Of a stretch of DNA of 57,153 bases, positions 26,466-42,667 are shown piece by piece. How positions within the stretch are numbered: position 1 is the first letter of the stretch; every line of letters starts with the position of its first letter. Location of the stretch: the NCBI GenBank assembly GCA_029004185.1, contig JAQUPB010000003.1:1-57153 (forward strand), given 5' to 3'. The position numbers and the translations under genes are program-made. The notes under the pieces were generated by a model. That model saw only the letters and a list, made by a program, of their open reading frames with translations. It made no database searches and was not told the origin of the DNA. Origin of the DNA: Bacteroidales bacterium (GTDB lineage: Bacteria; Bacteroidota; Bacteroidia; Bacteroidales; JAHJDW01).

Positions 26466-26542
26466 AAAATTATTTTATTTGCTCCAGTCCAAAAGCGATT
26501 TATAATATGTACAAATAAAAAACGTGGACTAAAACTATATCC

Positions 26543-26654: not shown

Positions 26655-26884
26655 AAGAATAAAAGTTAACGCTTATTATTTTTTATAAAGAAAGAACGAT
26701 GATTCAATGCATTACAAAGATATGATTTTTTAGTTAAATTATAAAATTGTTTGATTTTTATTCGGTAATAAATACAGCAAAAAACGTACCATGAGGGATG
26801 GTGATGAGAAAATAAAAAAAATTATAAAATTGAAAAAATACTTACCTATCATATCAAGATAATAGTAACTGTCATGTCGTATTA

Positions 26885-28096
26885 TCATTTAAATAATGAA
26901 TTTACATCAAAGTCTTGGTTAAAATAGGTTTTATGGGTCGTGATATTATTTGCCTTAATCCCATAGTCAAATATAAAACGATTATAAATATTTTCAGGCA
27001 TGGGATCAATAATAATTACTTCGGGTGTATTTCTACGTTTATTAAATGCTCTCTTAAATAAAGTGTCCGTCTGAGTATCTGTTGCGGGGAAAGAATAACC
27101 TATAATAATTATTCGGTCAGCTTTAACTAATGATTCCTCCGCCTTGTTCCATAATTGTGAAAAAATATTTCCAAAGTATGAATAGTTTTTACACTTAACG
27201 GGTGGAATTATCAAGGGCATTGAGACCAATCCTTCAGAAGACGCTGTGGCTTCCGGCATCCCTTCAAGTATGATAGCAAAATTAATTAACAAATAGCCAT
27301 CGGGAATTTTTTCACCAATCAAGGGAAGATTCGGTGGATAGTATCCATAAGAATAATCCGCATACCCACTCATGAATCTTCCTTTGAAGGTATTATAAGG
27401 GTTTATGGTTGATTCATAAATATAAAAATCATCTATCGGTATTTCTTGTAGTGATTTTAGTTTATCTCCATCAGATCTTAAACAACTTGTTAACCAATTT
27501 GTAGATCCATGTAGTTTCAGAATAATTGGATAATCCTTTGTCTGGTTATCTTTCGCTTCAATCCATTGGTCCCTATAAACCTTTGTTGGCTTAACTAAAT
27601 AACCATTATCAGCGTTCCAATTACTTGTTTGTTTTAAAGCTCTATCCATTAATGTATCCCAATTAAATGTAATGATAATATCTTCCTTGGTTAAGTTTTT
27701 TGCCAAATTAAGATGTGATGCAGATGGTGGCCCATTTTGTATTTCATTAATTACACTTGCAAAAACGAAAATCAGTTGAATATAAGTTTTATAAATCAAA
27801 GTATTATCGGTACTATTGAAAATATTTTCTTTTTTTTCAAAGAGTTGGTTTAGCTTTTCTTCAACCTCACTGTGTAGTATCTCTATATCTTCATTATAGG
27901 TCAAGAAACCTGTCCAAGGAATATTATGAAAGTCCTTCAAGTAATTAGTGATGTCACCAATTAAAACCCAACGATTTTCTGCTATTCGGAGTTTGTGAAA
28001 TGTCTTAAAAAAATCCTTCGCAATAGGCATTTTTACTTTTGTCGGAGAGTCAATATAACTTTTTGATGCACCTGCACCAAGCAAAAACAAGTTCAT
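26885..28096 (-). CDS. SIR2-like (SIR2_2 family) protein, putative NAD+-consuming effector
   Basis: N-terminal LFLLGAGASKS, IITFNWDTLMD (Asn/Asp) and ILKLHGSTNW (His), the hallmark strings of defence-type SIR2 domains. Confidence 0.8.
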   Translation of the reverse strand: MNLFLLGAGASKSYIDSPTKVKMPIAKDFFKTFHKLRIAENRWVLIGDITNYLKDFHNIPWTGFLTYNEDIEILHSEVEEKLNQLFEKKENIFNSTDNTLIYKTYIQLIFVFASVINEIQNGPPSASHLNLAKNLTKEDIIITFNWDTLMDRALKQTSNWNADNGYLVKPTKVYRDQWIEAKDNQTKDYPIILKLHGSTNWLTSCLRSDGDKLKSLQEIPIDDFYIYESTINPYNTFKGRFMSGYADYSYGYYPPNLPLIGEKIPDGYLLINFAIILEGMPEATASSEGLVSMPLIIPPVKCKNYSYFGNIFSQLWNKAEESLVKADRIIIIGYSFPATDTQTDTLFKRAFNKRRNTPEVIIIDPMPENIYNRFIFDYGIKANNITTHKTYFNQDFDVNSLFK

Positions 28097-28133
28097 TTAT
28101 CAATTTTTACTGTGTATTAAATGCATGTGTTCA

Positions 28134-28799
28134 TTAGTGTTCATATTTTTTCTCTTTATCGTCTATTAGCCTCTCAAATTCCAGTCCAAGTATTTTTAAT
28201 TTTCTTGCAAAGGGAACAATAACAAGTCCAATGATTATAGCAATTATTCCAAGCCTTTCTGTTGTAATTGAAATACAACCTTTAAAATCAAAATAGAGAA
28301 GTAAAAAAATTATTGAAGCAAGAAACCAACAAATAAATCGGAACCAATTAAAAAATTTCTTTTTATCTTTTTCGTTTTTACTAACAGCTTTAGAAAGAAA
28401 ACTGTTCTTCAAATTTCTAAATTGTGGAATTGTAGGGATTAATTTCAAAACTTCTTTCCCATTATCTTCAGTTAAAAAATATATCTCAAATCCTTCGGTA
28501 TTGTCTGCCCCAAAAACTAAATAAAGTGGAATTGTATCATCTCCAAGAATTTCTGCGTATTTTTTAAGTTGTTCAATCGCAATATTTTCAGATTCCTTTC
28601 GTCTTTGTCTTTTGAACTCGAATAATGCAACAGGTCGTTTTGAAATATTATCAATTACGGCCATGTCTACACGGTATTTACTTGATACTTTCCACTCAAG
28701 CATTATGGATTCTTCTGGATATCCGTGCTGAATTAAAAAGTCAGTAACACGTTTTAAAATGTCTAAATCTCTTTCCATTATTTTTAGTTTTAAAATCAA
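28134..28799 (-). CDS. HSDR_N/Mrr-like PD-(D/E)xK-fold domain protein with two C-terminal TM helices
   Basis: GYPEESIMLEW...YRVDMAVID...PVALFEFKR (D...E-x-K). TM helices FRFICWFLASIIFLLLYF and LGIIAIIIGLVIVPFA. An alternative start lies at 28778. Confidence 0.65.
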   Translation of the reverse strand: MILKLKIMERDLDILKRVTDFLIQHGYPEESIMLEWKVSSKYRVDMAVIDNISKRPVALFEFKRQRRKESENIAIEQLKKYAEILGDDTIPLYLVFGADNTEGFEIYFLTEDNGKEVLKLIPTIPQFRNLKNSFLSKAVSKNEKDKKKFFNWFRFICWFLASIIFLLLYFDFKGCISITTERLGIIAIIIGLVIVPFARKLKILGLEFERLIDDKEKKYEH

Positions 28800-28881
28800 T
28801 CTAAATTCTATTCCCTCTTCTCACACTCCGCTATAGATTGTAAAAAATTAACAATATATGAGTTTACCTTTATTTTGTGTA

Positions 28882-30300
28882 TTACATATAAAAACTATAT
28901 CTTATTTGTGGCATTTCATTATCAGGAATATATTTAAGAATTTCTCCTACTTTTCTAGCACAATCCAATGTTACTGGATATTTTCTGTCAAATTGTGTGT
29001 TATTCCAATTCATTTTAGTTAATGTCAATATTTCCTCGCAAATTGTTAATGGAGATTCATTATTTTCAAACAATCTTATTTCAATTGGTTGTGGAATATA
29101 CATACCCGTATAGGTTTTATAATATTCTACAGAACCACGAGTATACAACAGGAATCTATTTTTTTCTAACTCCAAACATGTTCCTCTGTATGGAGGATAT
29201 AATCCATCACGAAAAAGCCGAATTTGACTATCTTGAATTGTTAAGAAATCATAAGTTGAAATACCTAACTCTTCAATTACTTTGGTAAAACCTTCAATTT
29301 CCTTTTCATTAAAGTTTGACGATTTATGCAATACCAATCGTGCCGGTAAGTTTTCAACTGCAATTTTATATTCTTTTAGTGCATTTAAAAGTAACTCATA
29401 AGCTTGTTCACTTTCTAAATGTGGGGTTCTGTCAAATTTATCTACAACGACCGGAGAGCCTCTAAGTATAATGCCATTACCTAATTCATTAAATATTTGT
29501 GCCAAACTTGTTTGCATTGTTTGTTTGTCCCTACTTCTATAAAACCCAATACCGACATAACAAACAGAAGGTTTATTTTCATTTTTTAACATTCGCCAGG
29601 GAATACCTTTGGCTTTATAATAAATTGCTGTACATAAATTCCACGCTCTTGTTGCGTCATCTTGAACACCTTTGTTATTTTTCAAACTATGTTCTTTTAT
29701 AATTTGAATAGGAATAGATAAGTGCATTGACTTTGCTTTCAAAGCCCGTCTGAAATCGTGTTCCAAGCTTTCCGTGTCAATATCTTCATCTAATTTATCT
29801 TCTTCTTGTTTTAAACTTTTTTTTGAAATTTTATTTTCAAACGATTTCGGCAATAAACATATAATAACATCAGGATTTTTATTTTGCGATAAGAAACGCA
29901 CTGCTTCATAATACATATCAACAGCTTGGTCAATTCTATCGTCTCTGCTATTTGTTGACAATATCGTATTTAATTCCTTTTTATTAATAGTTTTATTTAA
30001 ACTATCATCTGTTATTAATTTTGAACAAAACCCATTATGTTCGTTAAATCCAGCAAAAGAAACGAATAAGTTTGGTTGTTTTGAATTTTCTTTGGCAATA
30101 ATTGGTGCTTTGCAAATCTCAATCCACTCATTAAAAAGTTCAATATTTTCAGATATTCCAACAACACCAAGCTTAATTTCTTTTGGTTTGGTAATCATTT
30201 CATGGTCAAAAACATTATATTCTTTCATACCTGCACGAGGGCAAATATGATTACCTTTTCCAAATACCATTTGAGGTTCTTCTATAAAATTAAACTTCAT
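28882..30300 (-). CDS. short prokaryotic Argonaute (MID+PIWI only, catalytically inactive)
   Basis: FIEEPQMVFGKG N-terminus. MID pocket string HDFRRALKAKSMHLSIPIQII. AIYYKAKGIPWRM. CYVGIGFY and LVLHKSS occupy positions where active Agos carry catalytic Asp residues. The C-terminus ILTLTKMNWNN...PVTLDCARKVGEIL resembles the Maribacter SPARTA Ago as I remember it. Confidence 0.9.
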   Translation of the reverse strand: MKFNFIEEPQMVFGKGNHICPRAGMKEYNVFDHEMITKPKEIKLGVVGISENIELFNEWIEICKAPIIAKENSKQPNLFVSFAGFNEHNGFCSKLITDDSLNKTINKKELNTILSTNSRDDRIDQAVDMYYEAVRFLSQNKNPDVIICLLPKSFENKISKKSLKQEEDKLDEDIDTESLEHDFRRALKAKSMHLSIPIQIIKEHSLKNNKGVQDDATRAWNLCTAIYYKAKGIPWRMLKNENKPSVCYVGIGFYRSRDKQTMQTSLAQIFNELGNGIILRGSPVVVDKFDRTPHLESEQAYELLLNALKEYKIAVENLPARLVLHKSSNFNEKEIEGFTKVIEELGISTYDFLTIQDSQIRLFRDGLYPPYRGTCLELEKNRFLLYTRGSVEYYKTYTGMYIPQPIEIRLFENNESPLTICEEILTLTKMNWNNTQFDRKYPVTLDCARKVGEILKYIPDNEMPQIRYSFYM

Positions 30301-30301
30301 T

Positions 30302-31681
30302 TTAAAATTTTAGAGTTACTTGAATTTTGTCAGACAATACATTATTAACATCTTCTTTTTCATTCATAGACCAGCTATCATCATTAAGAATTGGGAACGA
30401 ATCGAAATTAACTATATCTCCAAAATCAATAAATTTATATTTATTACTAAATAGGTTATCTTCGTCCTTGTATTGCAAAAAGTGGCTAATAAATTTAACA
30501 TGATTAAACACATGCTGATTTCTTTCATTCCTTTTTAGATACGTTATTTTGTCTTTCTCATTATACAAAGGTTTTTTACCATCAAATGTAAATGCCCAGT
30601 CAGGAACAATACTAATATACCATTTATTCTCAATATCAATAAAAGCAATTTTAAAAGCAAAATGCTTGCAAGTGTAATATGTTTTCTCTTTCCACTCTCT
30701 TGAAGTTTGTTCAAAAACTGTTCGGGTTGCATCCTTTTTGCTGTGCCATTTTGCAACTCTTTTGCTTAAATTTTCATCTGGAGGCATGAACCTAAAATGA
30801 TTATAATTCTTTACCCATTCGACGCCCATTTTATACAATTTTTGTATTAAACAAAATTTAAGTAAAGTTTTGAAAACATTCTTATAATCATCATCAATAG
30901 AATAAAATTCGGATGTTGAAAATTCTTCAATTGTACCTGTATCTACAATATTATGTAATGGAATAGAGCTATTACTTATGTCATGAAAACTAACTATTTT
31001 ATTATTAAAACAAACCCAATCAGAAGAAAATTTTAAATTTTGTTGTTTTAATGCTTCATAAATAACTTCTCTATTAGTAGATTTTTTAAACAACTTTCTC
31101 TCGGAATTAATTGAGTTTTTTATAATTTCTTTCCTGTCTATATTTAAAGCCCCAATGAATATTTTTTGAGCAAAATCAATATTAATTAATGAAGAATATA
31201 ATTTTTCTGTATTTTGTTTTCGCTTTATTTTTTCTTCTTCAAATAATGTTAAAAGTGATTTTTGAATTTCATCTTTCAATTGAAAAGCACTATTAACTTC
31301 TTTCCAAAATTTTCCATCATAGATATTTCCAACTTTATTTGCAAAATCGTTTTGTTTTTGTTCTGTTTTTATTTTTTTTAAATTAAAAACAAGAATTGGT
31401 TTGCCTTCTCTGTCTGCAATAAACCACTCCTTTTCTGTTATTGAAACACCATCATCTAGTTCATACCCATATTTGCCACCCAATAATAAAATATAAACAT
31501 CAGCCTTGATAACTTCATTCAAGCAAACATCAATTGAATTTCTATTTTGGGCAATAAATGTGTTTTCACACATTGAGGGTTTGCAATTAATTTGTTCAAT
31601 GGCAAGCCGAGCAGCTTCTCTTTCATTCGATAAGTCAGAAACTGTTGAACTAACAAATATTATAGGCTTTACATTAAACAT
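30302..31681 (-). CDS. DUF4062 (TIR/deoxyribosyltransferase-like) - APAZ fusion protein, partner of the short pAgo
   Basis: N-terminal strings IIFVSSTVSDLSNEREAA, ADVYILLLGGKYG, SITEKEW and GKPILVF match the DUF4062 consensus. The C-terminal HFAFKIAFIDIENKWYISIVPDWAFTFDG resembles the APAZ core of TIR-APAZ proteins. The stop is 1 nt from the pAgo ATG. Confidence 0.8.
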   Translation of the reverse strand: MFNVKPIIFVSSTVSDLSNEREAARLAIEQINCKPSMCENTFIAQNRNSIDVCLNEVIKADVYILLLGGKYGYELDDGVSITEKEWFIADREGKPILVFNLKKIKTEQKQNDFANKVGNIYDGKFWKEVNSAFQLKDEIQKSLLTLFEEEKIKRKQNTEKLYSSLINIDFAQKIFIGALNIDRKEIIKNSINSERKLFKKSTNREVIYEALKQQNLKFSSDWVCFNNKIVSFHDISNSSIPLHNIVDTGTIEEFSTSEFYSIDDDYKNVFKTLLKFCLIQKLYKMGVEWVKNYNHFRFMPPDENLSKRVAKWHSKKDATRTVFEQTSREWKEKTYYTCKHFAFKIAFIDIENKWYISIVPDWAFTFDGKKPLYNEKDKITYLKRNERNQHVFNHVKFISHFLQYKDEDNLFSNKYKFIDFGDIVNFDSFPILNDDSWSMNEKEDVNNVLSDKIQVTLKF

Positions 31682-31916: not shown

Positions 31917-32336
31917 TTATTTGAATATGTTCTTTCGACTTATTCCCCACATTTCCGTTTGATTTGTTCCGGTGAATATGTATCCAGAACTATATGGACT
32001 TTTTGCCCTTACAATAATTGTATCGTTTATTTGTGATACCTCTTTCTGTACACCTTTCCTATCAAGCCGTAAACTTTCAATATTTTTTTCATATGGCTGT
32101 AACCACCTGCTTATGGTTTCCTCATCAAAACCGAGTAATTGAGCAATCGCCTTATAGGTAAGTCCTTCGAGCCATAATTGCAATGCTTTCGTTACAAAAT
32201 AGGAACTGTTCTTTTTAATTTTAGTTTTATCGGAAAATCGGTAGTTGCAGGCTTTATTCTTGCATTTATATAGTTGCCGGTCATTCCGGATTCCGTGCTT
32301 TATGATATTTTCAGAATTACAATTAGGACATTTCAT
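31917..32336 (-). CDS. InsA-like zinc-ribbon + HTH DNA-binding protein (IS1-type orfA-like, or a regulator)
   Basis: CPNCNS...YKCKNKACNYRF zinc ribbon followed by the HTH string LTYKAIAQLLGFDEETISRWL. No transposase catalytic ORF follows. Confidence 0.6.
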   Translation of the reverse strand: MKCPNCNSENIIKHGIRNDRQLYKCKNKACNYRFSDKTKIKKNSSYFVTKALQLWLEGLTYKAIAQLLGFDEETISRWLQPYEKNIESLRLDRKGVQKEVSQINDTIIVRAKSPYSSGYIFTGTNQTEMWGISRKNIFK

Positions 32337-32361
32337 ATAGTTATAAGTATATAAGTGAATA

Positions 32362-32520
32362 TATAACTATATATCTACGACACATGATAGGGATGGAACA
32401 CCCGTTAAAGCATATATCTAGGCCGCAAGGAAAGATATTTTCCTTGCACGAAAACTATTTCGGGAATATTAAAACACCGGAGAAATATAAAAGAAGAGAG
32501 AAAGAATATACAGGAAAATT
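32362..32520 (+). repeat. island repeat, copy A (long form, shared with copy C). Core at 32442-32488.
   Basis: CTATATATCTA...AACACCC..TTAAAGCATATATCT...9-bp hairpin GCAAGGAAA/TTTCCTTGC (32425-32447)...ACTATTTCGGGAATATTAAAACACCGGAGAAATAT. Confidence 0.7.
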
Positions 32521-32591
32521 ATTGTTTTGAAAGAGTTGTGCAACTGCCACAGATGTTGGCTGTCGTTTTTTCTTTTTTTTCCAATTTTATG

Positions 32592-34307
32592 TTATCCTTT
32601 ACCATTCTGATTAAATTCTGTCATTCCCGTTGTCCTTGCAGCAGCTGTAACTTCACCCCAGCCTGTAAAATAATTCTCAAAATATTTTATCGGAAATTGA
32701 CTGTTTTGTGTAACTTCTTCTTTTGTTGGTATGTGTCCTATCTGTTTGGAAATATTTTTAATTTCAAGTTGCAATGCTTTTTTGCTCACTTCATACTTCT
32801 GTTTTTTCAGTCGTGCAACCCGGCTGTTTTTCGCTTTTGGTTTGTCATCATTGATTTTACGAAAAGGGTCAAGTCCAGAACTTAACTCATTATGTCTCTG
32901 TGATGTGATGTTGTGATAATATTCCGAAAGTTCAATGCCTACAAACCTTCTATTTAATTGCTGTGCCGTCAAAGTTGTCGTGCCTGCTCCATTGAAAGGG
33001 TCTAGCACAAATTCGTTTTCGTTTGTGAATAGAGAAATCAATCTATACATAAACATTGGTGGCAACTGACAAGGGTGGTCAACTCTACGACTGTTGTGTT
33101 TTAAGCGGTGAATGTCCGACCAAACATTTGATGCCATTTCGCTATCTTTTATTTTTAGTCGCTTGCGTTTTGTAATGCAGTTTGCTCTGATACAAAAATT
33201 TTCCGATTGCATCTCAATCGCATTCTTTTCAAAAGACGTGTTTTTACTCCTTACAAGTGCCGGCAATGGTTTTGGTTTTCCTTTGCTAAAACATAAAATG
33301 GAATAATGTGAAGGCATAATCATACGCACTGGCATACTCAATCCTTCCCAAACAATCCAATCCTGATAATCAAGGATTCTGTTTAGATGCTTGAAATGTC
33401 TAACGCACCATTGTGGAATATTTAAAACCGCAAGCGTTCGCCCTGGTCTTAACACCCTTGCAAGTTCGCTTAACCATTGGTCGCACCATTCAAAATATTT
33501 TTGAATATCAATTCCATCATCCCAACTTTCATATTTTTTATTCAAGTTATATGGTGGATCTGCAAAACAAAAATCAATACTGTTATCAGGAATTTTTTTG
33601 AGTTGCCCAATGCAATCTCCATTTAGTAACTTCGATTTTTCAGAATAAATATTTTCTGTTTGCGGGTATTCTCCAAATGAATGTTTTTTATCTATCGGTT
33701 TGAAATATTTTCTCTGGTCATAAACATTTACAAACTTATATTGTGGCAAACCAAATAAATCGCAGAGGCGATTTACAACCCCACTTGGATAGCGTTCAAA
33801 GTCAACTGATATATCACGCCAAACATCTGACATTAAAGTTCCAAATTCGTGGTACAAATGTTTTTTTCCTCCATAATCTTTTGTTGTCTTGTCGCAACAA
33901 GGGCAGTATGTATAACCTATTCTTGTTTTGGTGTGATTTAAACTTTCTTTGTAACGAGTTATAATCAGCAATGCAGAATGACTGTCACTTAAATAATCCT
34001 CACGTTCAATTGGATTTGTAAGTTTAACAGCAATCCAAAGTTTTAAGTATGAATCATTTTTTAGTTGTGTACAAAAGTCATTCGCAAAAATTGGAGAAGT
34101 TAAAATTGCTATTGTAGAACGTTTATCTGTTCTACTTATAAAATCATTAAGTTGATTGAACAGGTTTTTCTTGTTGGGAACTTCTTCAAGCGATTTGTAG
34201 TATGGTAAAATAACAAACTCAACATTTGAAGATGTGGTTTTCACTTCTGCAATGTTGCTTTTTATATTTCGGTCTTTTAGCGATATGGCATTTTCGCTTA
34301 AATGCAT
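32592..34307 (-). CDS. beta-class N6A/N4C DNA methyltransferase with an extra N-terminal half-domain and a C-terminal homing-endonuclease-associated-type repeat
   Basis: Motif IV FADPPYN precedes motif I VLDPFNGAGTT (beta order). The N-terminal ~220 aa repeats the (S/D)VW(R/S)DI region with a degenerate TSPIF. The C-terminus reads IPTKEEV...YFENYFTGWGEVTAAARTTG. Confidence 0.9.
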   Translation of the reverse strand: MHLSENAISLKDRNIKSNIAEVKTTSSNVEFVILPYYKSLEEVPNKKNLFNQLNDFISRTDKRSTIAILTSPIFANDFCTQLKNDSYLKLWIAVKLTNPIEREDYLSDSHSALLIITRYKESLNHTKTRIGYTYCPCCDKTTKDYGGKKHLYHEFGTLMSDVWRDISVDFERYPSGVVNRLCDLFGLPQYKFVNVYDQRKYFKPIDKKHSFGEYPQTENIYSEKSKLLNGDCIGQLKKIPDNSIDFCFADPPYNLNKKYESWDDGIDIQKYFEWCDQWLSELARVLRPGRTLAVLNIPQWCVRHFKHLNRILDYQDWIVWEGLSMPVRMIMPSHYSILCFSKGKPKPLPALVRSKNTSFEKNAIEMQSENFCIRANCITKRKRLKIKDSEMASNVWSDIHRLKHNSRRVDHPCQLPPMFMYRLISLFTNENEFVLDPFNGAGTTTLTAQQLNRRFVGIELSEYYHNITSQRHNELSSGLDPFRKINDDKPKAKNSRVARLKKQKYEVSKKALQLEIKNISKQIGHIPTKEEVTQNSQFPIKYFENYFTGWGEVTAAARTTGMTEFNQNGKG

Positions 34308-34316
34308 TGTTTCGTT

Positions 34317-35330
34317 TTATTTATCTAAACTTAACAAGAATTTAGAAAGTTTATCAAGTTCACTGTCTTTCAATGTTACAGTGCAATCACTGAATTGGCA
34401 AAGAGTTCGTAGCGCTGATACCCGTTCAAAATTTCCCGCTCCGTCAATGATATATGCAATACAATGTCCATGTTTGTGTAATTGCCTCTGTCTATCTTGA
34501 GCTTGCCCTGCTTTACGTTCAATGACGCTATTTGTTGTTACTTGAAAGCATACTTCAATTGCACAATATTTGCCTTCCGGTGATGCTGCAACAATATCGT
34601 ATGAAAGTAATGTTCTTTTGTTCTGACTAATTTTTTGAATTTGTTTCTTTTTAAAATCCCATTTTGGTAATTTGTCTTCTAAATAGTCAACAACATATTT
34701 TTGTGCAAGATTACCAAGAGAATTTGCTGTTGCACCACCCGTAATTCGACTTACCCAAATATATCGCTGCTTAACAAATGTTTCAAGTTCTCTTTTATGT
34801 CCTATCAAAGTTCCAATAGTGCATTTCTCTTCAATTTCTGATGGTAAATTGTCTGCTAATGCTGCACCCCCAAATAATAGAAGATTAATAATATCTTCAA
34901 TTACTGGATTAAGTTTTTGATTAGTTACAAGTCCAACTCCATCAACTTTCAAATGAGTGTTACTCCAAGTTTTCTTTCCTGATAGTGTTTGAAATTTATA
35001 AGAATGGTTTTTCTCATTCCATACAAACTCCATTGTTTCCTTTTCAAAAAGTTTAGGGAGTTCCTTTTTGAACCGCATAAGTTTTTCACCACCGATGTCA
35101 GAAAGAACCATCAAATGTTTGAGAAATAAATTAGATGAAAGTTCCTTTGTTGTTTCTAAAACCTTCTTCCATGCAAAAGGTTCAGCATTTGCAATATTGA
35201 GTAAGCTGATAAATTTGTCTTGCGTTTCAATAAGTTTTGGAATTATACTCGAATTGCGTTCTGTTTCAGCTATTTTTGGTGGCCAAAATTTAAGTGCATT
35301 AGCCTCTAAGTCGTCAAGTTTTCTTATCAT
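34317..35330 (-). CDS. putative type II restriction endonuclease (cognate of the adjacent methyltransferase)
   Basis: Lies 9 nt upstream of the MTase gene on the same strand. Possible PD-(D/E)xK-like core LSYDIVAAS...YCAIEVCFQ. Assignment rests mainly on context. Confidence 0.5.
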   Translation of the reverse strand: MIRKLDDLEANALKFWPPKIAETERNSSIIPKLIETQDKFISLLNIANAEPFAWKKVLETTKELSSNLFLKHLMVLSDIGGEKLMRFKKELPKLFEKETMEFVWNEKNHSYKFQTLSGKKTWSNTHLKVDGVGLVTNQKLNPVIEDIINLLLFGGAALADNLPSEIEEKCTIGTLIGHKRELETFVKQRYIWVSRITGGATANSLGNLAQKYVVDYLEDKLPKWDFKKKQIQKISQNKRTLLSYDIVAASPEGKYCAIEVCFQVTTNSVIERKAGQAQDRQRQLHKHGHCIAYIIDGAGNFERVSALRTLCQFSDCTVTLKDSELDKLSKFLLSLDK

Positions 35331-35484
35331 TTGTTTGCTTAAATATTTTTTGTAAAAATAGTTAAAAAAAACCGAAATAATGTTTGGTGAGTGGTAAATT
35401 TAAGCCCTTTACTTTTCACACAACGATTAGAACTTTGAATTGATGGACATTTAATACCTGCGTCTATCTCATCACGAAACCAAA

Positions 35485-35580
35485 GTTAATAAATTATTAC
35501 TCAATTATCAAATTATTTTCCTTGAACGCAAGTTATTCCGGGAATACTAAAACACCGGAGAAATATCAGGAAAGCAGAGA
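35485..35580 (+). repeat. island repeat, copy B (short form, shared with copy D). Core at 35519-35566.
   Basis: ATAAATTATTACTCAATTATCAAATTATTTTCCTTGAACGCAAGTTATTCCGGGAATACTAAAACACCGGAGAAATATCAGGAAA. Confidence 0.7.
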
Positions 35581-35585
35581 TAAAG

Positions 35586-36416
35586 CTATCCCTCCCAAAT
35601 TATACTTAAAATAGATTTTGTTCCGAAAACACAGTGTTCATTAAATTTTCTGCGTGTGTGGCTTTCAAAAACATTATCAAACCAATCAGATGCAAAAACT
35701 TCTTGGGTAGATTTTGATGTAACTTGATTATAAAAATAATCCCCGGCAACTGTATTTTCCGGTATTTTAATTTTACCATGCCTTAATGACCAATATGGAA
35801 AATCTTTGCTATAGCAATACCATGAAATTTTACCACCAACACTATAAACAACCATAATTGGATAATTTCCAATAATTGTAAATCTTATGGCTGTCGCTGT
35901 CAGGCTTACTTGATACTTTTTTGATAATTCACTAATAAGTTGAAAAGAAAATTTCCTTTTTAAGCAGTCGGTTTCAATTTTATTTTGTGGTAATAAAAGA
36001 CATGAAGCAAAATAATCTGCCTGTCTTTCTGCATAATTTTTTGAAGAAAAATCCGTAAAGCATGAATGACTTGGCGATAATCCTAACAACAAAGCATTTC
36101 TTTGTTCATCAATAAAAAAATGCCCTAATTCATGTGCAAAAGTAAATCTTGCCCTTTCAGTATATGCGTGTTCTAATCTATCAATGTTTATATAAATGTG
36201 AAAATCTTTATTAAAACACTCAATCATTCCATCAAATGAATCTTTATAGTTACCATAACTATATGAAATATTGTTTTCGCTTGCAATAACTTCAGGATTA
36301 ACGGCTCCATTATAGAAATAATAATTAGCGATACCCTCTGCTAACTCAGATAATATAAGTTTATCGGAATTTGTCAGAAAATTATTGTTTGTTTTTTGAC
36401 TGCTCTCTATCATCAT
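35586..36416 (-). CDS. ImmA/IrrE-family zinc metallopeptidase (DUF955) with a C-terminal extension
   Basis: RARFTFAHELGHFF (HExxH) and downstream ERQADYFASCLLLP. About 110 aa of extra C-terminal domain. Confidence 0.85.
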   Translation of the reverse strand: MMIESSQKTNNNFLTNSDKLILSELAEGIANYYFYNGAVNPEVIASENNISYSYGNYKDSFDGMIECFNKDFHIYINIDRLEHAYTERARFTFAHELGHFFIDEQRNALLLGLSPSHSCFTDFSSKNYAERQADYFASCLLLPQNKIETDCLKRKFSFQLISELSKKYQVSLTATAIRFTIIGNYPIMVVYSVGGKISWYCYSKDFPYWSLRHGKIKIPENTVAGDYFYNQVTSKSTQEVFASDWFDNVFESHTRRKFNEHCVFGTKSILSIIWEG

Positions 36417-36693
36417 TCATTTTTTTTCTTATTTCATCAGTAATAGCTTTTCCTTCACGTGCAGCCATTGATAAATTTTTTGTACTTTCAGTTGTGAGAT
36501 TTAAATTACTAATCTCAAGTTTTTTTATTTTACCTCTTTTGATAATGTTTATAGGGTTGTCCCAGTCTTCAGGAGTTTCTTTGTTAATGTCATTTGATTT
36601 TTCAAAAATTAAAATTTCATCTGCATTAGTAGGAAGCAATAATCCATTAGACTTAAACAATTCGCCTAAACTTATTTTCTTATCCTTTTGCAT
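36382..36693 (-). CDS. small hypothetical protein between the sigma factor and peptidase genes (candidate anti-sigma or peptidase substrate)
   Basis: 103-aa ORF overlapping the sigma-gene stop by 14 nt and the peptidase start by 35 nt, suggesting translational coupling. No motif recognised. Confidence 0.5.
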   Translation of the reverse strand: MQKDKKISLGELFKSNGLLLPTNADEILIFEKSNDINKETPEDWDNPINIIKRGKIKKLEISNLNLTTESTKNLSMAAREGKAITDEIRKKMNDDREQSKNKQ

Positions 36694-37333
36694 ATTTTAT
36701 AGATTTTAATTGTGAATATTTTGAAAAATATTCAATAATTTTTTTCTCGGATCGCACTTTAATTTGGCGTATATTTTCTTTTGTTATTCCAAAATAATTA
36801 CATAAATTATTTAGCACTTTAGAGGGTGTTTTTTTACCATCTTCTTGATATAAGTACAAAAAGCGTAAAACATCTCTATCTCTTTCGGGTAATGAATCAA
36901 GTGCATTTTTTAATATTTTAGCGTTTATGCTTTCTATATTTATATTATCTTTTTCTGCATCTATATATGTTTCAATAAAAACCGGTTCATTATTATCTGA
37001 TGTTTTTATATTAAGAATTTTAAAATCTTGAAGTAAGTCTTGAAGTTCATTTTTGGCAATTTGTAAAATCCAACCTTTAAATGCGTTGTCTGTGTTTTTT
37101 TGGGAATTATCAGGGGTTGTAAATAAAGGATTTTCATAAATAGCAAGAAAAGTATTATTTACAATTGCATTTAAAAATTGTTTATCGCGAATACCAAAGT
37201 TATTTTTTAAAACCGAATAAAGTAATTTGCTATATTCTTTGTATAAAATATTAAATGCAGATTCAGCATTTTTTATATTTTCTTCTTTATATGAAATAGA
37301 CAATAATAGTTCTTCTAATTTTTCTACTTCCAT
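36680..37333 (-). CDS. ECF-like sigma-70 family factor
   Basis: Region-2-like FNILYKEYSKLLY and FKGWILQIAKNELQD. Region-4-like LDSLPERDRDVLRFLYL...LCNYFGITKENIRQIKVRSEKKI. Confidence 0.7.
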   Translation of the reverse strand: MEVEKLEELLLSISYKEENIKNAESAFNILYKEYSKLLYSVLKNNFGIRDKQFLNAIVNNTFLAIYENPLFTTPDNSQKNTDNAFKGWILQIAKNELQDLLQDFKILNIKTSDNNEPVFIETYIDAEKDNINIESINAKILKNALDSLPERDRDVLRFLYLYQEDGKKTPSKVLNNLCNYFGITKENIRQIKVRSEKKIIEYFSKYSQLKSIKYAKG

Positions 37334-37352
37334 AATTGTAAAACTAAATTCC

Positions 37353-37383
37353 GTGACAAAGTTAAAAAAAATCTATCTGTCAC
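37353..37383. promoter_or_regulatory. inverted repeat GTGACA-N19-TGTCAC in the divergent promoter region
   Basis: Sits in the 93-nt gap between the sigma gene (start 37333) and the multiubiquitin gene (start 37427). Confidence 0.35.
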
Positions 37384-37426
37384 ACTTTTTAGTTTTATAA
37401 GTATTATTAATTTAATTTATATTATT

Positions 37427-37903
37427 ATGAAACAAAATTTACACAATGAAAAACTGCCTGCCTTGAAATTAATAATTGATGGCAAGCATTATGAATGGCA
37501 TCAGCAATATATTACAGGTGCCGAAGTTAGAAGATTAGGTAACATTCCCCGTGAGGATGAAATCTTTCTTAAAATTAAAGAACCTTGGGAAGATGAACCA
37601 ATAAGTGATGATACCAATGTTGATTTAGCCCGCCCCGGAATAGAACATTTTTTTTCTAAAGTGAAATTCCCTATTACAATTATTGTAAACGGTAGAGAAA
37701 AATCTTGGGGCGAAGAAAAAATTTCATACGAACAAGTTGTAAAACTTGCATTTGAAAACTACGTTGAAAATGCTGCTACTGCCTATACTGTAACGTATGA
37801 CAAAGGGCCTAGGCAAAACCCTGAAGGAACTATGGTTAAAGGTGATAACGTTTTTGTAAAAAATAAAATGAGATTCAATGTTACAGCAACTAATCAATCA
37901 TAG
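37427..37903 (+). CDS. multiubiquitin-type protein (two tandem beta-grasp Ubl domains)
   Basis: Two repeats of the pattern (I/V)I(I/V)(D/N)G+..W....I(T/S)..(E/Q)V..L(G/A): LIIDGKHYEWHQQYITGAEVRRLG and IIVNGREKSWGEEKISYEQVVKLA. C-terminus KNKMRFNVTATNQS. Confidence 0.75.
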   Translation: MKQNLHNEKLPALKLIIDGKHYEWHQQYITGAEVRRLGNIPREDEIFLKIKEPWEDEPISDDTNVDLARPGIEHFFSKVKFPITIIVNGREKSWGEEKISYEQVVKLAFENYVENAATAYTVTYDKGPRQNPEGTMVKGDNVFVKNKMRFNVTATNQS

Positions 37904-39059
37904 TCCTGATTTGAAGCAACTCAGGGATGAAGGGTATGAAATCGAGTATAGTGGTGGATATTTACTTATCCACCACATACCTTATGTAAACAACAATAAA
38001 GAAATAAAACATGGTACATTGGTAAGTGAGCTTACATTAGTTAGTAATACTAAAACAGCTGCACCGGCTAATCATGTTATTTATTTTATAGGGGAACACC
38101 CATGTAACAAGGACGGTAGTATTATTACTTCGATAAAACATACCAGCCAAAATAAAATATTGCATGAGGGAGTTATTATAAATCATTCCTTTTCGAATAA
38201 ACCGGCAAATGGTTATGCTAACTATTATTTTAAAGTTTCGAGGTATGCTGATATTATTTCGGCACAAGCAAAGGCTTTGGATAATAGCGTTACAGAAAAG
38301 ACCTTTAAAGTAGTACACGATAATAAAGAAGATTCGGTATTTCAATATCCTGACACCAATTCAAGTAGAGCAAACATTAATTTAATAAATTCTAAATTTA
38401 ACGAACAAAAGATTGCCATAATTGGATTAGGGGGTACAGGTGCTTATATTTTAGATTTAGTAGCTAAAACTCCAGTACAAGAAATACACTTGTTTGACGG
38501 TGATGTTTTTTTTCAACATAATGCTTTTCGCTCACCGGGTGCGGCTTCAAATGAGCAATTAGACAGAATAATGAAAAAAGTAATTTATTACTCTGAAATA
38601 TATTCTAAAATGCACAAAAATATTATTCCACATATTGAATATATAACAGATGATAATATTAATTGCTTGGATCAAATGTCTTTTGTATTTATATGCGTTG
38701 ATAAAAATAGTGCAAGAAAAATCATTATCGATAATCTTTTAAAAACAAATGTACCTTTTATTGATGTTGGGCTTGGTGTAAATGTTGTTGATGATAAATT
38801 AATAGGAACTTTAAGGGTTACAAATGGTAGCTCTATTAAAAATGACCATTTAATTAATAGAGTTCCAATGGAAGAAAACGATGTTATTAATGAATACGCA
38901 ACCAATATTCAAATAGCCGATTTGAATTCTTTTAATGCATCATTAGCAGTAATTAAATGGAAAAAAATAATCGGATTTTATCAAGATTTAAATAAAGAGT
39001 ATCATTGTTCATATTCAATTAATAATTCTAATTTTATTAATGAAGACATTACGGCATAA
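37878..39059 (+). CDS. ThiF/E1-like adenylyltransferase with an uncharacterised N-terminal domain
   Basis: Rossmann string KIAIIGLGGTGAYILDLVAKT...HLFDGDVFFQHNAFRSPG. Overlaps the Ubl gene by 26 nt. The N-terminal ~170 aa (YLLIHHIPYV...) is unassigned. Confidence 0.85.
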   Translation: MLQQLINHSPDLKQLRDEGYEIEYSGGYLLIHHIPYVNNNKEIKHGTLVSELTLVSNTKTAAPANHVIYFIGEHPCNKDGSIITSIKHTSQNKILHEGVIINHSFSNKPANGYANYYFKVSRYADIISAQAKALDNSVTEKTFKVVHDNKEDSVFQYPDTNSSRANINLINSKFNEQKIAIIGLGGTGAYILDLVAKTPVQEIHLFDGDVFFQHNAFRSPGAASNEQLDRIMKKVIYYSEIYSKMHKNIIPHIEYITDDNINCLDQMSFVFICVDKNSARKIIIDNLLKTNVPFIDVGLGVNVVDDKLIGTLRVTNGSSIKNDHLINRVPMEENDVINEYATNIQIADLNSFNASLAVIKWKKIIGFYQDLNKEYHCSYSINNSNFINEDITA

Positions 39060-39399
39060 ATTTGTTGAGTTGATTCCCGAAAAATTGGAGGATGGTGTTT
39101 TATACATTTCACTTGAATATTGTACAGCCATACACAAATGTGTGTGTGGCTGTGGCAATGAAGTAGTAACTCCAATTTCGCCAACAGATTGGCAAATTTC
39201 TTTTGATGGAAAAACGATTTCCCTATATCCGTCTATTGGCAATTGGAATTTTAATTGTAAATCTCATTATTGGATTATTAATAATAAAATTAAAAATGCC
39301 AGAAAATGGTCAGAAAAAGAAATTAATTCGGGCAGAAAATCAGATAATAAAAAGAAAAATAAATATTACAAGAAGAAACCTTGGTATATTATTTTCTGA
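39040..39399 (+). CDS. DUF6527-like small protein (metal-binding-like CxCGC...CxxH signature, candidate E2/E3-like component)
   Basis: FVELIPEKLEDGVLYISLEYCTAIHKCVCGCGNEVVTPI...LYPSIGNWNFNCKSHYWI. Overlaps the E1 gene by 20 nt. Confidence 0.7.
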   Translation: MKTLRHKFVELIPEKLEDGVLYISLEYCTAIHKCVCGCGNEVVTPISPTDWQISFDGKTISLYPSIGNWNFNCKSHYWIINNKIKNARKWSEKEINSGRKSDNKKKNKYYKKKPWYIIF

Positions 39400-39473
39400 T
39401 TGTAAATAACCGAGAGAATAGTTTCAAAATTTTATTCCGCACTAAAAAGAAGAAATCAAAACTATTGTTTTAT

Positions 39474-39650
39474 TATATAGCTATATATCTATGGCACGCC
39501 GTAAGGATGTAACACCCTATTAAAGCATATATCTGGAAAACAAGGAAAGGTATTTTTCTTGCACGTGAGTTATTCCGGGAATACTAAAACACCGGAGAAA
39601 ATACAGGAAAACAGAAAGAAAGAATTCAAATAATTTTATTCGAGAGTTAC
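39474..39650 (+). repeat. island repeat, copy C (long form). Core at 39557-39604.
   Basis: CTATATATCTATGGCAC...AACACCCTATTAAAGCATATATCTGG...CAAGGAAAGGTATTTTTCTTGCACGTGAGTTATTCCGGGAATACTAAAACACCGGAGAAAATACAGGAAAA. Collinear with copy A. Confidence 0.7.
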
Positions 39651-39666
39651 ATAAGTCCAATGAGAA

Positions 39667-40329
39667 CTACCAAATGTAGGGTATTAATCGATAGCGAGTT
39701 TTTTGACAATACTCAATATAACCAGATAAATCTTTACGCAAAACATTCTCTTCATTCAAAATCCTGAATATAAAAACTATCGGCAAAAATACAAACATTG
39801 TCAATGCCCAGTATGAACCTAATGCTATTGGGGTGAACAAAAACAAAAAAGTCATACCTGTATACATCGGATGGCGAACTATTGCATAGGGGCCTGTTGA
39901 AATAATTTTTTGGTTCTTTTCAACTTCAACAACACGGGACGCATAACTATTCTCTTTGAAAACAAGAAAAACAAAAAAATAACTCAGAAAAACGATAATG
40001 TTTGCTATCACAACGAGAAAAATTGGAACATCAGACCAATTAAAACGATAATCAAAACCCGGAATTATAAAACCAATAAAGAAAGGTATAGTGAATATTT
40101 TTACTATAATTTTTTGTTTTATTTCTTTTTCCTTTCTCTTAAATCTTCGTTCCAAGAGTGCAGGGTCTTTATTAACAAGATAAATTAATGTAGTCATCAT
40201 TGGAATAAAAAGAGTAACTGAATATATCCATGCTTCCCAAAATTTGAATGAACCGGCAGGAAGAAAAAATAGTATACACATAAATACCGGATATAAAACT
40301 ACTACCTTTAATATTAATTTATTTTTCAT
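39667..40329 (-). CDS. isoprenylcysteine carboxyl methyltransferase (ICMT/PEMT) family membrane protein
   Basis: Multi-TM protein with YAIVRHPMYTGMTFLF. Start moved to the internal Met MKNKLILKVV (ATG at 40329). Confidence 0.8.
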   Translation of the reverse strand: MKNKLILKVVVLYPVFMCILFFLPAGSFKFWEAWIYSVTLFIPMMTTLIYLVNKDPALLERRFKRKEKEIKQKIIVKIFTIPFFIGFIIPGFDYRFNWSDVPIFLVVIANIIVFLSYFFVFLVFKENSYASRVVEVEKNQKIISTGPYAIVRHPMYTGMTFLFLFTPIALGSYWALTMFVFLPIVFIFRILNEENVLRKDLSGYIEYCQKTRYRLIPYIW

Positions 40330-40442
40330 ATTTTTTTTATTATTAATTTGTATTGAAGCGATTTTGATAAACTTACCACTAACCTGCTGCTGCTGACGGC
40401 AATGATTTAACGCATACATCTGCTCCGCCTTGACACAAATTT

Positions 40443-40530
40443 ATAAATTATTACTCAATTATCAAATTACTTTTCTCGCGTGAGTTATTTCGGGAAAATT
40501 AAAACACCCAAGGAATACAGAGAAATCCTT
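40443..40530 (+). repeat. island repeat, copy D (short form, most diverged core). Core at 40473-40520.
   Basis: TATAAATTATTACTCAATTATCAAATTACTTTTCTCGCGTGAGTTATTTCGGGAAAATTAAAACACCCAAGGAATACAGAGAAA. Confidence 0.6.
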
Positions 40531-40679
40531 GATTTAACTTGCTTTTTGCCGAAATATTTCGTATATTACAATTAATAAATATAAGCCGTTTTTATTTTAT
40601 TAATAGCAGCATATAGCAACTATCAGGTATTTTTATTTGTCAGATTTTCGAGAACTAATTATTAAATGAATTTTCCGGG

Positions 40680-41426
40680 ATGTTAAGAGCCATTAATGAA
40701 ATATTGAAAGATATAGATGTCTTGAAGAAAGACCTTACAAAGCTTTTGAGAAAATCCGATACCGAAAATATTATACAAAACTTTGAACTTGAAGAAAAAT
40801 ATAATTTCCTGAATGAAGTGATGAATGGAGCCAATGTATTAATACATGTTAATGATATTATTAAAATGAGCCTTGTTTGGGGAAGCGGTAAGTTTAAGGA
40901 AATGCTTGGTTATACTTCCGAGGAACTTATCACAATGGGTTCGGAATACAGCAAAACCCATTACCACCCTGATGACTACAAATTATTAGTTGAAGCTGCT
41001 GAATTTTTCAAACAGGAAAAAGGAACTTCTCATACGTTGATGTATAGAGTAAAACATAAGGACGGCAGTTGGATGCGTTTTATTACAACACGTTCTCTTT
41101 TTAAACGAAAGCCCACCGGAGAGCCATGGTTAGTAATTGCAGTAACAATAAAAACCGATGCCGACATTCATACAAATATATCGATGGATGAAATGAGAAC
41201 AAAAAGCAACCGCAAGAAAAATGCAGATGTAATTGAAAAACTTACAGAAAAAGAATTGATAATTATAAAACACATTGTAACCGGAAAATCCAACAGGGCT
41301 ATTGCAGAAGAATTAGGATTAAGTATTAATACAATAAGTGTTCACCGCAGAAATATATTCGTGAAACTTAAAATAACAAAAACGGCACAACTTGTAAATT
41401 TTGCTACTGATAACGGACTAAATTAA
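40680..41426 (+). CDS. PAS-domain LuxR-family transcriptional regulator
   Basis: Central PAS-like region (LIHVNDI...YRVKHKDGSWMRFIT). C-terminal LuxR HTH LTEKELIIIKHIVTGKSNRAIAEELGLSINTISVHRRNIFVKLKI. Confidence 0.85.
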   Translation: MLRAINEILKDIDVLKKDLTKLLRKSDTENIIQNFELEEKYNFLNEVMNGANVLIHVNDIIKMSLVWGSGKFKEMLGYTSEELITMGSEYSKTHYHPDDYKLLVEAAEFFKQEKGTSHTLMYRVKHKDGSWMRFITTRSLFKRKPTGEPWLVIAVTIKTDADIHTNISMDEMRTKSNRKKNADVIEKLTEKELIIIKHIVTGKSNRAIAEELGLSINTISVHRRNIFVKLKITKTAQLVNFATDNGLN

Positions 41427-41443: not shown

Positions 41444-42667
41444 TTATTCTTTTATAAACTTGGCAACTTTTACTCCATCTGAATTAAAAACTTTTATAAA
41501 ATAAATCCCGCTTGGCAAGCCGCCAACATTAATTTCTGTTTTATCGGTAAGCCGACAGATTTGCTGTTTTATTACTTCCTCTCCAGTAATATTAAAAACA
41601 GATAAAGTGCTTTCATTTATTAATTGCGATGTTTCTATTGTTATTGTTGTGTTTGCAGGATTCGGATATATTTTCATAGTTTCTTCCCTGCTTTCCTCTG
41701 CAACCCATACAACACCTCCATTTGTGGTTTTTATAATTGTACCGCTAACACCCACAGCATAACCTATATCAGAGTTAGTAAAAAAAACGGAAGTTAACGT
41801 TTCATATCCCACTGTTTCAGATATCCAGTCAACACCTCCATTTGTGGTTTTTATAATTTCATTAGTCCGTAATCCATATACTTTGGTTTCCATTGCACCG
41901 CCTACTGCATATCCTATGCTTTCATTTGTAAAATAAACGGAAGATAATGGTAAATATATATTTTCTGTTTGAATTGTCCAGTTATAGCCTTCGTTTGTTG
42001 TTTTTAGAATTGTACCATTATCGCCTACAGTATATCCTGTATTTGCATTAGTAAAGAAAACAGAATTTAATTGAACTGGTGCTCCACCTATTATCCAAAT
42101 CCATTCAGTGCCGCCATTCGTGGTTTTTAGAATTATACCACCAGCTAATTCACCACCAACAACATATCCTATATTTGTATCAATAAAGAAAACAGAATTT
42201 AAACAAACAATTGTTCCGCTTGTTTGTTTTATCCAGTTAGTGCCGCCATCTGTAGTTTTTACGATCATACCACTATCGCCTACAGCATATCCTGTATCTT
42301 GGGTTGGAAAGTAAACGGAATTTAATTGCTTCGTTGTTCCACTAGTTTGTTGTATCCAATTAATGCCACCGTTTGTGGTTTTTAAAATCGTGCCACTATC
42401 ACCCACAGAATACCCCGTATCTTGAACGGGAAAATAAATGGAATTTAGCCATTTTGTTGTTTCGCCTGTTTGTGGGGTCCAATTAGTACCACCATTTGTG
42501 GTTTTTAAGACAACACCATCACCGCCTACAGCATAACCTGTATTAAGAGCGGAAAAGTAAACAGACATTAAAGGAACAATTGTGCCGCTTACTTGTTGTG
42601 TCCATTGTGCATATGATGTTATATTAAACGATAAAAGGCATACAATAGTAAATGTTATTTTTTTCAT
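41444..42667 (-). CDS. T9SS-secreted BNR/Ycf48-like repeat protein
   Basis: Signal peptide. Repeated KTTNGG(T/I)NW...SV(Y/F)F units. C-terminal IYPNPANTTITIE...GIYFIKV sorting domain. Confidence 0.85.
   Translation of the reverse strand: MKKITFTIVCLLSFNITSYAQWTQQVSGTIVPLMSVYFSALNTGYAVGGDGVVLKTTNGGTNWTPQTGETTKWLNSIYFPVQDTGYSVGDSGTILKTTNGGINWIQQTSGTTKQLNSVYFPTQDTGYAVGDSGMIVKTTDGGTNWIKQTSGTIVCLNSVFFIDTNIGYVVGGELAGGIILKTTNGGTEWIWIIGGAPVQLNSVFFTNANTGYTVGDNGTILKTTNEGYNWTIQTENIYLPLSSVYFTNESIGYAVGGAMETKVYGLRTNEIIKTTNGGVDWISETVGYETLTSVFFTNSDIGYAVGVSGTIIKTTNGGVVWVAEESREETMKIYPNPANTTITIETSQLINESTLSVFNITGEEVIKQQICRLTDKTEINVGGLPSGIYFIKVFNSDGVKVAKFIKE

Follow-up and report, generated by a model that had tools for sequence, protein, structure and literature searches.

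Repeated sequences between the genes of a cluster, or in front of them, are known from several kinds of system. In chromosomal integrons, attC/VCR repeats lie between mostly promoterless, co-oriented cassettes that are read from the Pc promoter. Where elements accrete in tandem at one att site, the left arms of successive copies are expected to follow the pattern B, P, P, P. The rAID-1 clusters of the Bacteroidales are headed by a XerD-family recombinase and contain arrays of immunity genes with repetitive intergenic sequences reminiscent of integrons (Ross et al., bioRxiv 10.1101/471110). Promoter reuse and putative mobile promoters have been described in prokaryotes (Nijveen, Matus-Garcia and van Passel 2012, PMC3575422), and in the insertion sequence (IS) IS1 the InsA protein represses the IS1 promoter that overlaps the end IRL and binds both ends of the element through a zinc finger and a helix-turn-helix (HTH) (PMC12428005). 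The present analysis concerns a family of four intergenic repeats, copies A to D, in a defence island of a Bacteroidales bacterium (assembly GCA_029004185.1, contig JAQUPB010000003.1, positions 1 to 57,153; this whole stretch of 57,153 nt is referred to as the window). Our preferred reading, to which we give slightly less than an even chance, is that the four copies are reused upstream control regions, that their common core is a protein-binding segment, probably for an IS1 InsA-related protein encoded in the same island (the InsA-like protein), and that recombination within the core explains the cassette pattern of the island.

The four copies lie at 32442-32488 (A), 35519-35566 (B), 39557-39604 (C) and 40473-40520 (D), all in one orientation; each is situated between functional modules of the island, and all are contained in 8 kb. 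They had been pointed out in a first-pass annotation made from the sequence alone, and their number, positions and direct orientation were borne out by reading of the sequence, by a profile search and by shuffling. A 31-nt core pattern, with up to three mismatches allowed, matches copies A, B and C, the number expected from 100 dinucleotide-preserving shuffles being 0. An nhmmer profile built from the four copies and run over both strands of the 57 kb returned exactly four matches, listed below, the next match having an E-value of 0.6. All-against-all BLAST of the 25 intergenic regions, four of which hold copies A to D, revealed no other shared repeat family.

32436-32504, no strand assigned: core copy A, nhmmer E-value 6e-18; between the stop codon of the methyltransferase (MTase) gene (32592) and the InsA-like gene
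35514-35585, no strand assigned: core copy B, nhmmer E-value 1e-20; directly adjoining, on its right, the CapP stop codon (35586)
39551-39622, no strand assigned: core copy C, nhmmer E-value 2.6e-20; 45 nt from the stop codon of the ICMT gene (39667)
40468-40532, no strand assigned: core copy D, nhmmer E-value 1.8e-16; in the divergent region between ICMT (minus strand) and the PAS-LuxR gene (plus strand, ATG at 40680)

The core exceeds the 45 nt or so originally proposed: in A-C it has a length of about 70 nt, and in D, the most diverged copy, one of about 60 nt. The stretches CGGGAA and TAAAACACC are invariant in all four copies, the blocks TTTTCyTTG, TATwTTy, TAyTwrAA and CC..AGrGAAATA are kept, and a purine-rich right part, AGGAAAnCAGAnAnAAAG, is present in A-C. 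Copies B and C have in common an identical tract of 31 nt. The right flanks are similar in A, B and C and different in D; rightward of the core, the homology of A and C is not significant past +18 nt (p 0.054). To the left, the copies fall into two pairs, A and C aligning with 77% identity over 179 nt (32360-32537 and 39474-39648) and B and D with 81.5% identity over 92 nt (35483-35573 and 40437-40525), the latter alignment agreeing with the distinct B/D left arm described at first. In D, a possible trace of the A/C arm, TTAACGCATACATCTG, attains a p-value of only about 0.03.

The housekeeping sigma factor of the Bacteroidota recognizes promoters with the consensus TTTG at -33 and TAnnTTTG at -7. 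Both boxes, with a spacer of 17-21 nt, are found upstream of a same-strand gene in the left arms of B and D:

35481-35512, minus strand: B arm, TTTG-N20-TAACTTTG, directed toward the BanI-type endonuclease gene, whose ATG follows after about 150 nt
40436-40466, minus strand: D arm, TTTG-N19-TAAATTTG, directed toward the ICMT gene, whose ATG follows after about 107 nt

There are seven such full-consensus matches in both strands of the 57 kb, compared to 2.4 expected from shuffles, and the B and D arms account for two of the seven. The homology between B and D extends leftward from the core as far as the -7 box and no farther, the sequence beyond being unrelated (p 0.32). In the B/D arm the promoter consensus of the Bacteroidota is complete, and the arm would serve as promoter for the restriction-modification (R-M) pair in the case of B and for ICMT in the case of D. 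Across the cores themselves, no consistent boxes of the sigma-54 or extracytoplasmic function (ECF) type were recognized by eye.

The left arms of A and C are of a different kind. Their features are as follows:

32360-32424, minus strand: A arm, with TAGATATAT (32420-32412), GGGTG (32403-32399) and TAGATATATAG (32377-32367)
32425-32447, no strand assigned: A hairpin, GCAAGGAAA-GATAT-TTTCCTTGC, a perfect 9-bp stem (32425-32433 and 32439-32447) whose right arm is the first core block
39474-39561, minus strand: C arm, with boxes at 39534-39527, 39517-39513 and 39491-39481, and a hairpin at 39541-39561

Two ATATATCT boxes occur in A (32367-32377 and 32412-32420) as well as in C (39481-39491 and 39527-39534), as had been claimed; the 9-bp hairpin claimed for both copies is perfect in A, and in C it has 8 bp with one G.T pair (39541-39548 and 39554-39561). 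The homology of A and C stops about 7 nt beyond the TAGATATATAG box. The GGGTGAT boxes resemble GGTGATG, the sequence of an IS1 end, a likeness that serves only as a lead.

The regions upstream of the homologues of the InsA-like gene were compared in 16 distinct loci from several Bacteroidota clades. In 11 of the 16 (L008/L024, L015, L017, L018, L019, L021-L023, L025, L027 and L033) an element of about 65 nt, GGGTGnnnnCCnAA..rGGTGTAAnAT..TAGATATATAC-N10-15-ATG, stands directly before the start codon; a more distant clade of InsA-like genes (L028-L032) has a different upstream sequence. A profile made from the external upstream elements only returned the C arm (E-value 0.009) and the A arm (E-value 0.13) as its best two matches in the window, both in the right orientation, and on this basis the A/C arm is, as judged by sequence comparison, the native 5' control region of the InsA-like gene. 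In A, the GGGTG box(es) and TAGATATATA are followed within 10-25 nt by the ATG of the gene; C has the sequence part of this arrangement only. The C arm is an orphan: no gene follows it, and the stop codon (39399) of the convergent DUF6527 gene lies 75 nt on.

Both types of arm end about where transcription should begin, and the minus-strand repeats would therefore be non-transcribed promoter DNA only. The suggestion of a mobile promoter or leader that travels with the cassettes can consequently be kept in its first half, the promoter DNA being represented by the B/D consensus and by the A/C element of the InsA-like gene, and given up in its second, that of a transcribed leader.

The InsA-like protein consists of 139 amino acids (aa). 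It matches positions 1-101 of 199 of the NCBIfam model transpos_IS1 (3e-15) and the IS1_IS1595_Zn family (8e-11), and thus contains the N-terminal zinc finger and HTH of the InsA type; the DDE catalytic part (InsB) is absent, the protein ending at 139 aa like its listed homologues. A homologue search gave 407 matches at an E-value of 1e-10 or lower, and among the best 120 of the 407 the lengths are mostly 136-145 aa (range 91-159). By these matches the 139-aa protein is a member of a large family of stand-alone IS1-InsA-like proteins. In the window its gene is the first one upstream of a short prokaryotic Argonaute (pAgo) operon, the gap to the pAgo partner gene being 235 nt. Elsewhere, the InsA-like homologues adjoin variable defence genes, i.e., HsdR, MTase, DUF4747, Bil and WYL/MBL/AAA. 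The family of about 139 aa is large and unstudied in the Bacteroidota, and its members, often beside variable defence genes and with the upstream element kept in the clades nearest to the protein of the window, are candidate regulators of defence islands.

Some further features of these loci were recorded. In L031 the InsA-like gene is paired with BilA-D and a fused HTH-M78 regulator. A gene of about 100-127 aa with the motif PLLSAVVV...G.GFF...YW, assigned to no Pfam family and absent from the window, adjoins the InsA-like gene in L015, L017, L019/L020 and L025 (read in the direction of that gene in L017 and L025 and against it in L015 and L019). In L022, L023, L025 and L027 a RadC-like gene of about 150 aa and a lipoprotein or type IX secretion system (T9SS) protein precede the InsA-like gene, opposite to the variable cargo; L027 also has a tyrosine integrase, and the metagenome-assembled genome NORP67 has two such RadC-like/InsA-like loci. 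Possibly, the InsA-like gene marks the end of an integrative element at which the cargo lies.

Outside the window, a core-like element was found in intergenic positions of L017 (5841-5907) and L019 (1745-1812; L020 is the same sequence). In both loci it is located about 0.5 kb from an InsA-like gene, with one small partner gene between, and the encoded proteins are 50% and 46% identical, respectively, to that of the window. The related core is single in L017 and L019 and is without flanking repeats, and its orientation relative to the InsA-like gene and to the gene ending before the core differs from that in the window. A profile of the L017 and L019 cores alone retrieved the four window copies as its best four matches in the window (A 3.4e-5, C 1.5e-3, B 2.3e-3 and D 1.8). 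The cores of the window are 66-83% identical to those of L017 and L019, and 74-92% identical among themselves; a core identity of 66-83% beside proteins that are only 46-50% identical argues for selection on the DNA sequence.

Conservation of a fold was looked for in the same cores. The TCCGG...CCGGA stem that had been noted in the core, with a wobble in A, is indeed present in B and C and has a T.G pair in A, and it is lost in D and in L019. RNAalifold gave a consensus fold of -3.8 kcal/mol with a covariation term of -0.03, and the fold z-scores of single copies were not significant on either strand for B, C and D, the exception being the A hairpin, which is part of the fold of A on either strand. 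Rfam 15 produced 0 matches at the gathering score in the whole window and 0 at an E-value of 1 or lower in 32300-40700. A TTTTCCT/AGGAAAA helix flanking the core can be drawn in every copy; it was set aside, since tracts of pyrimidines and purines pair with little specificity and the blocks on the right fail to align. The proposal of a structured RNA or DNA is accordingly not supported. The lack of a conserved fold, together with the varying orientation of the core, favours a role as double-stranded DNA, and we infer that the core is an upstream control segment bound by a protein; by analogy with IS1, that protein is probably the InsA-like protein.

Read on the minus strand, the island contains the same scaffold in two units. 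The first has the order core (B), promoter, endonuclease, methylase, core (A), hairpin, InsA control region and InsA-like gene; the second has the order core (D), promoter, ICMT, core (C), hairpin and InsA control region, the last an orphan. R-M and ICMT are unrelated cargoes, each headed by the same core and promoter and each between direct copies of the core, so that the idea of cassettes bounded by the core was partly right in spirit. Core identity drops with distance in the array (B-C 92%, A-B 89%, C-D 84%, A-C 83%, B-D 79% and A-D 74%). By the diagnostic bases of the core, A pairs with D and B with C, whereas by the arms the pairs are A-C and B-D, which indicates that the copies have exchanged sequence. 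Given the same scaffold in two units, recombination within the core probably placed or swapped the promoter-led cassettes.

The preferred reading can be set out in more detail. In each unit the core would be joined on its left to minus-strand promoter DNA, the B promoter driving the BanI R-M pair and the D promoter driving ICMT. Copy A would control the InsA-like gene and probably also the short-pAgo operon behind it, and copy C would have lost its gene. As operator or upstream site, the core would be bound by a protein, plausibly the InsA-like one, in analogy to the autorepression of IS1 by InsA, and its reuse before other promoters would put several transcription units of the defence island under one regulator. 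A single crossover in the core, between a chromosomal core and InsA control region and an incoming core, promoter and cargo, could generate the cassette pattern; alternatively, the scaffold may have been duplicated and the cargo then replaced. Such recombination could be homologous or of the Campbell type, and a dedicated recombinase would be unneeded. A version of the Campbell model with a neat cassette tail was dropped in view of the p-value of 0.054 for the right-side homology of A and C. If the preferred reading is right, the locus would illustrate concretely how the wiring of a defence island is set up and how such an island is rebuilt, with one control segment before a type II R-M pair, a membrane methyltransferase and a regulator that heads a pAgo operon. 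The arrangement would give co-regulation and, as a side effect, patches of homology for inserting, swapping and deleting promoter-led cassettes.

Several observations weigh against this reading. The core is absent from most InsA-like loci that were inspected with flanks of 3-5 kb (L021-L025 and L027-L034), and the link between core and InsA-like gene comes from two lineages, which were examined only because they carry the gene. No k-mer is common to the cores and the InsA upstream elements. The similarity between core and upstream element is marginal (p about 0.01), concerns the right half of the L017 and L019 cores and the promoter-proximal part of the upstream element, and is found in none of the window copies; nor are the two mutual inverted repeats in L017, L019 or the window. 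A strict TAnnTTTG precedes only 6 of the 38 genes of the window, compared to 8.8% of random windows. Finally, copy C has nothing to regulate.

The distribution of the repeat was assessed in the source study, where the genome is known only from a 7x metagenome and the depth of the locus in the four landfill-metagenome runs (X1-X4) is 2-8x. When copy B was compared with the run contigs at a likeness of at least 80% (about 79% of X1 being read), only contigs of this locus carried the repeat, and the genome-wide spread typical of a generic repetitive extragenic palindrome (REP) or miniature inverted-repeat transposable element (MITE), which the first-pass annotation had named as fatal to its claim, is not seen in the source metagenome. 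There are no terminal inverted repeats or inverted copies, and no target-site duplications at the ends of the homology. A dispersed REP, bacterial interspersed mosaic element (BIME) or MITE was rejected on these grounds. The contigs of the runs break within the core, since B and C share 31 identical bases, and the four runs contain the reference arrangement only, with no alternative or excision junctions; many short joints in the run contigs are 20-24-nt AT-rich artefacts and were discarded. The core and both arms were also sought in sequence collections as exact or degenerate patterns. Species-representative genomes (596 Gb) gave 0 matches and JGI metagenomes two chance matches, viral contigs, plasmids and phages gave nothing useful, and over all collections the yield was these two chance matches and one match in a coding region. 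Relatives sought by way of the neighbouring PAS-LuxR protein were none closer than 33% identity.

A first alternative, which we regard as unlikely, is that the copies are functionless, decaying relics of a duplication upstream of the InsA-like gene or of an IS1-derived end, followed by replacement of genes, and that they are kept by gene conversion between neighbours. The orphan state of C, the degeneracy of D and the many InsA-like loci that do without a core agree with such an origin; the fall of identity with array distance and the 31-nt tract of B and C fit conversion between neighbours, and the gene is related to IS1. Against it, the borders of homology are sharp and coincide with promoter elements, and core identities of 66-83% where the proteins are 46-50% identical would be difficult to account for if the sequence were not under selection. 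Lacking inverted repeats, a DDE gene and target duplications, the copies do not qualify as IS copies.

Less probable still, and in our view improbable, is that a site-specific cassette system, either of the integron type or resulting from tandem accretion at an att site, uses the cores for recombination; in such a system circles of core, promoter and genes would integrate and thereby duplicate the core. The copies are direct and lie between modules, R-M and ICMT are bracketed with homologous promoter heads, and the invariant CGGGAA and TAAAACACC could serve as crossover region. The right flanks, alike in A, B and C and different in D, could be P' arms followed by a B' arm; a tyrosine recombinase is encoded within the window; and rAID-1 shows that intergenic repeats linked to a recombinase exist in this phylum (10.1101/471110). 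The recombinase, however, is 17 kb away, with repeat-free intergenic regions between 15.5 and 32.3 kb, and it scores 34 bits with the NCBIfam model integrase_gron against a cutoff of 265. A scan of both strands of the four intergenic regions for the attC boxes RYYYAAC ... GTTRRRY detected none, the R'', L'', L' and R' boxes all being absent. The left arms alternate (AC, BD, AC, BD) instead of following the accretion pattern B, P, P, P, and are explained as promoters, and the cores are only 74-92% identical. The four runs at 2-8x show no excision or alternative junctions, and the core is single in L017 and L019. The integron- or att-like site of the first-pass annotation was therefore not upheld, there being no adjacent recombinase and no attC R/L boxes, and the genes having their own promoters, mixed orientation and alternating arms.

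A bolder variant, to which we assign a very low probability, is that the core is recognized by a cassette-exchange system that derives from IS1 but has no DDE enzyme, and in which the InsA-like protein marks the cores and recruits a recombinase or the recombination machinery of the host. If true, promoter-led defence cassettes would be captured, swapped and lost at the cores, and the Bacteroidota would have a counterpart of the integron made from transposon parts. The weakest explanation, that the core acts as RNA, either as a small or antisense RNA of the plus strand or as a 3' untranslated region or terminator of the minus-strand genes ending before A, B and C, is slightly more improbable yet: these copies do lie 0-90 nt past the stop codons of MTase, CapP and ICMT, single changes do give plus-strand G.U pairs in the core stem of A and in the C hairpin, and the C hairpin is followed by TTTT on the minus strand, but the consensus fold without covariation, the loss of the stem in D and L019, the z-scores of B, C and D and the Rfam result speak against it, as do a terminator scan that was null at the repeats, a plus-strand hairpin after A that is weak and absent from the other copies, and, in L017, a core that faces the other way with respect to the gene before it.

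The window comes from a genome of low GC content, which its T9SS sorting domains place in the Bacteroidota. Returning to the island as a whole, its modules are the following:

26885-31681, minus strand: SIR2_2, HSDR_N_2/PD-(D/E)XK, short pAgo class I and DUF4062/APAZ-like partner (Pfam, PADLOC)
31917-32336, minus strand: 139-aa zinc-ribbon and HTH protein related to IS1 InsA (NCBIfam; Pfam HTH_23/HTH_28)
32592-34307, minus strand: cargo 1, N6/N4 DNA methylase (Pfam N6_N4_Mtase, 5.7e-42), between cores A and B
34317-35330, minus strand: cargo 1, BanI-type endonuclease, ATG at 35330 (Pfam RE_BanI, 5.7e-127), between cores A and B
35586-37333, minus strand: CapP, CapH-like protein and ECF-type sigma factor (PADLOC, NCBIfam)
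37427-39399, plus strand: multi-ubiquitin/E1/DUF6527 operon, divergent from the CapP block (Pfam)
39667-40329, minus strand: cargo 2, ICMT/PEMT-family methyltransferase of 220 aa (Pfam, homologues), between cores C and D
40680-41426, plus strand: PAS-LuxR regulator (Pfam)

The order of modules first given (pAgo operon and InsA-like gene, A, R-M, B, ubiquitin-like (Ubl)/sigma module, C, ICMT, D) agrees with the Pfam, PADLOC and NCBIfam assignments, with the correction that ICMT starts at 40329 and not at 40419: the homologues and the deposited call all have 220 aa, and the longest open reading frame (250 aa, 39667-40419) overcalls the start. The ICMT homologues in L013 and L014 (at most 72% identity) belong to long runs of small accessory genes that are unrelated to one another but read in one direction (methyltransferases, glyoxalase, SnoaL/DUF4440 and acetyltransferase); these runs look like cassette arrays. 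The pAgo operon has four genes, its partner matching PADLOC Aga_REase-PNTD (2e-75) and its Argonaute short pAgo class I (4e-186); three candidate effectors together form an unusual mix, with the InsA-like gene 235 nt upstream on the same strand. CapP was identified by PADLOC (8e-63), the CapH-like protein has 103 aa, and the E1 protein is DUF6791-ThiF. The 93-nt divergent region between the CapP block and the Ubl operon contains a 27-nt inverted repeat (37332-37358 and 37378-37404, 78% complementary), a candidate operator.

Both ends of the island are marked by imperfect palindromes. One, of 185 nt (26513-26681, 65% identity to its own reverse complement), is located between the SIR2 and BNR/T9SS genes, and the other, of 70 nt (40554-40623), upstream of PAS-LuxR; paralogous BNR/T9SS genes (24459-26465 and 41444-42667) flank the island. 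Farther away, 3508-13521 (minus strand) holds three tandem paralogues of 1214, 998 and 1089 aa. Over the first 300 nt on the plus strand, which encode the C-terminal ends, they share 84-93% identity; a Pfam scan, applied to the third paralogue, showed a T9SS-sorted protein with amidase_2 and CUB domains. The XerD-like tyrosine recombinase (409 aa, 14310-15539, plus strand) is preceded at a distance of about 420 nt by a full TTTG-N17-TAnnTTTG match (13862-13890) and is followed, up to 24 kb, by accessory genes (PIN, NlpC/LRAT, AAA and WG-repeat). The 57-kb window contains no tRNA gene.

Compared with the known systems, the window resembles tandem accretion in the direct shared core between modules and in the right flanks, alike in A-C and different in the last copy, and it differs in its alternating left arms, its non-identical cores and the lack of an adjacent integrase or tRNA. 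Like integron arrays it has direct, similar repeats between cassettes; unlike them it contains neither IntI nor attI, its dyad symmetry is weak (a 5-bp stem without covariation), R-M and ICMT have consensus promoters of their own, the Ubl operon is on the other strand, and the repeats occupy only 4 of 25 intergenic regions. With rAID-1 it has in common the phylum and a defence-type gene cluster with intergenic repeats, and it is set apart from the description of these clusters by its recombinase, 17 kb off, and by a cargo of anti-phage systems. As in IS1, there is a zinc-finger and HTH protein of the same family and a conserved element before its gene, which in IS1 is promoter and binding site in one (PMC12428005); in the window InsB/DDE, inverted repeats and a frameshift site are missing, the protein is stand-alone, and its binding to core or arm is hypothetical. 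In function, the window repeats are most closely like reused or mobile promoters (PMC3575422). As in that case, similar promoter regions stand before unrelated genes, and their homology ends where the transcribed, gene-specific part starts. The window departs from the reused promoters in that one core is joined to two types of promoter, the copies bracket cassettes as direct repeats, and all of them are gathered in 8 kb of a defence island beside an InsA-like gene.

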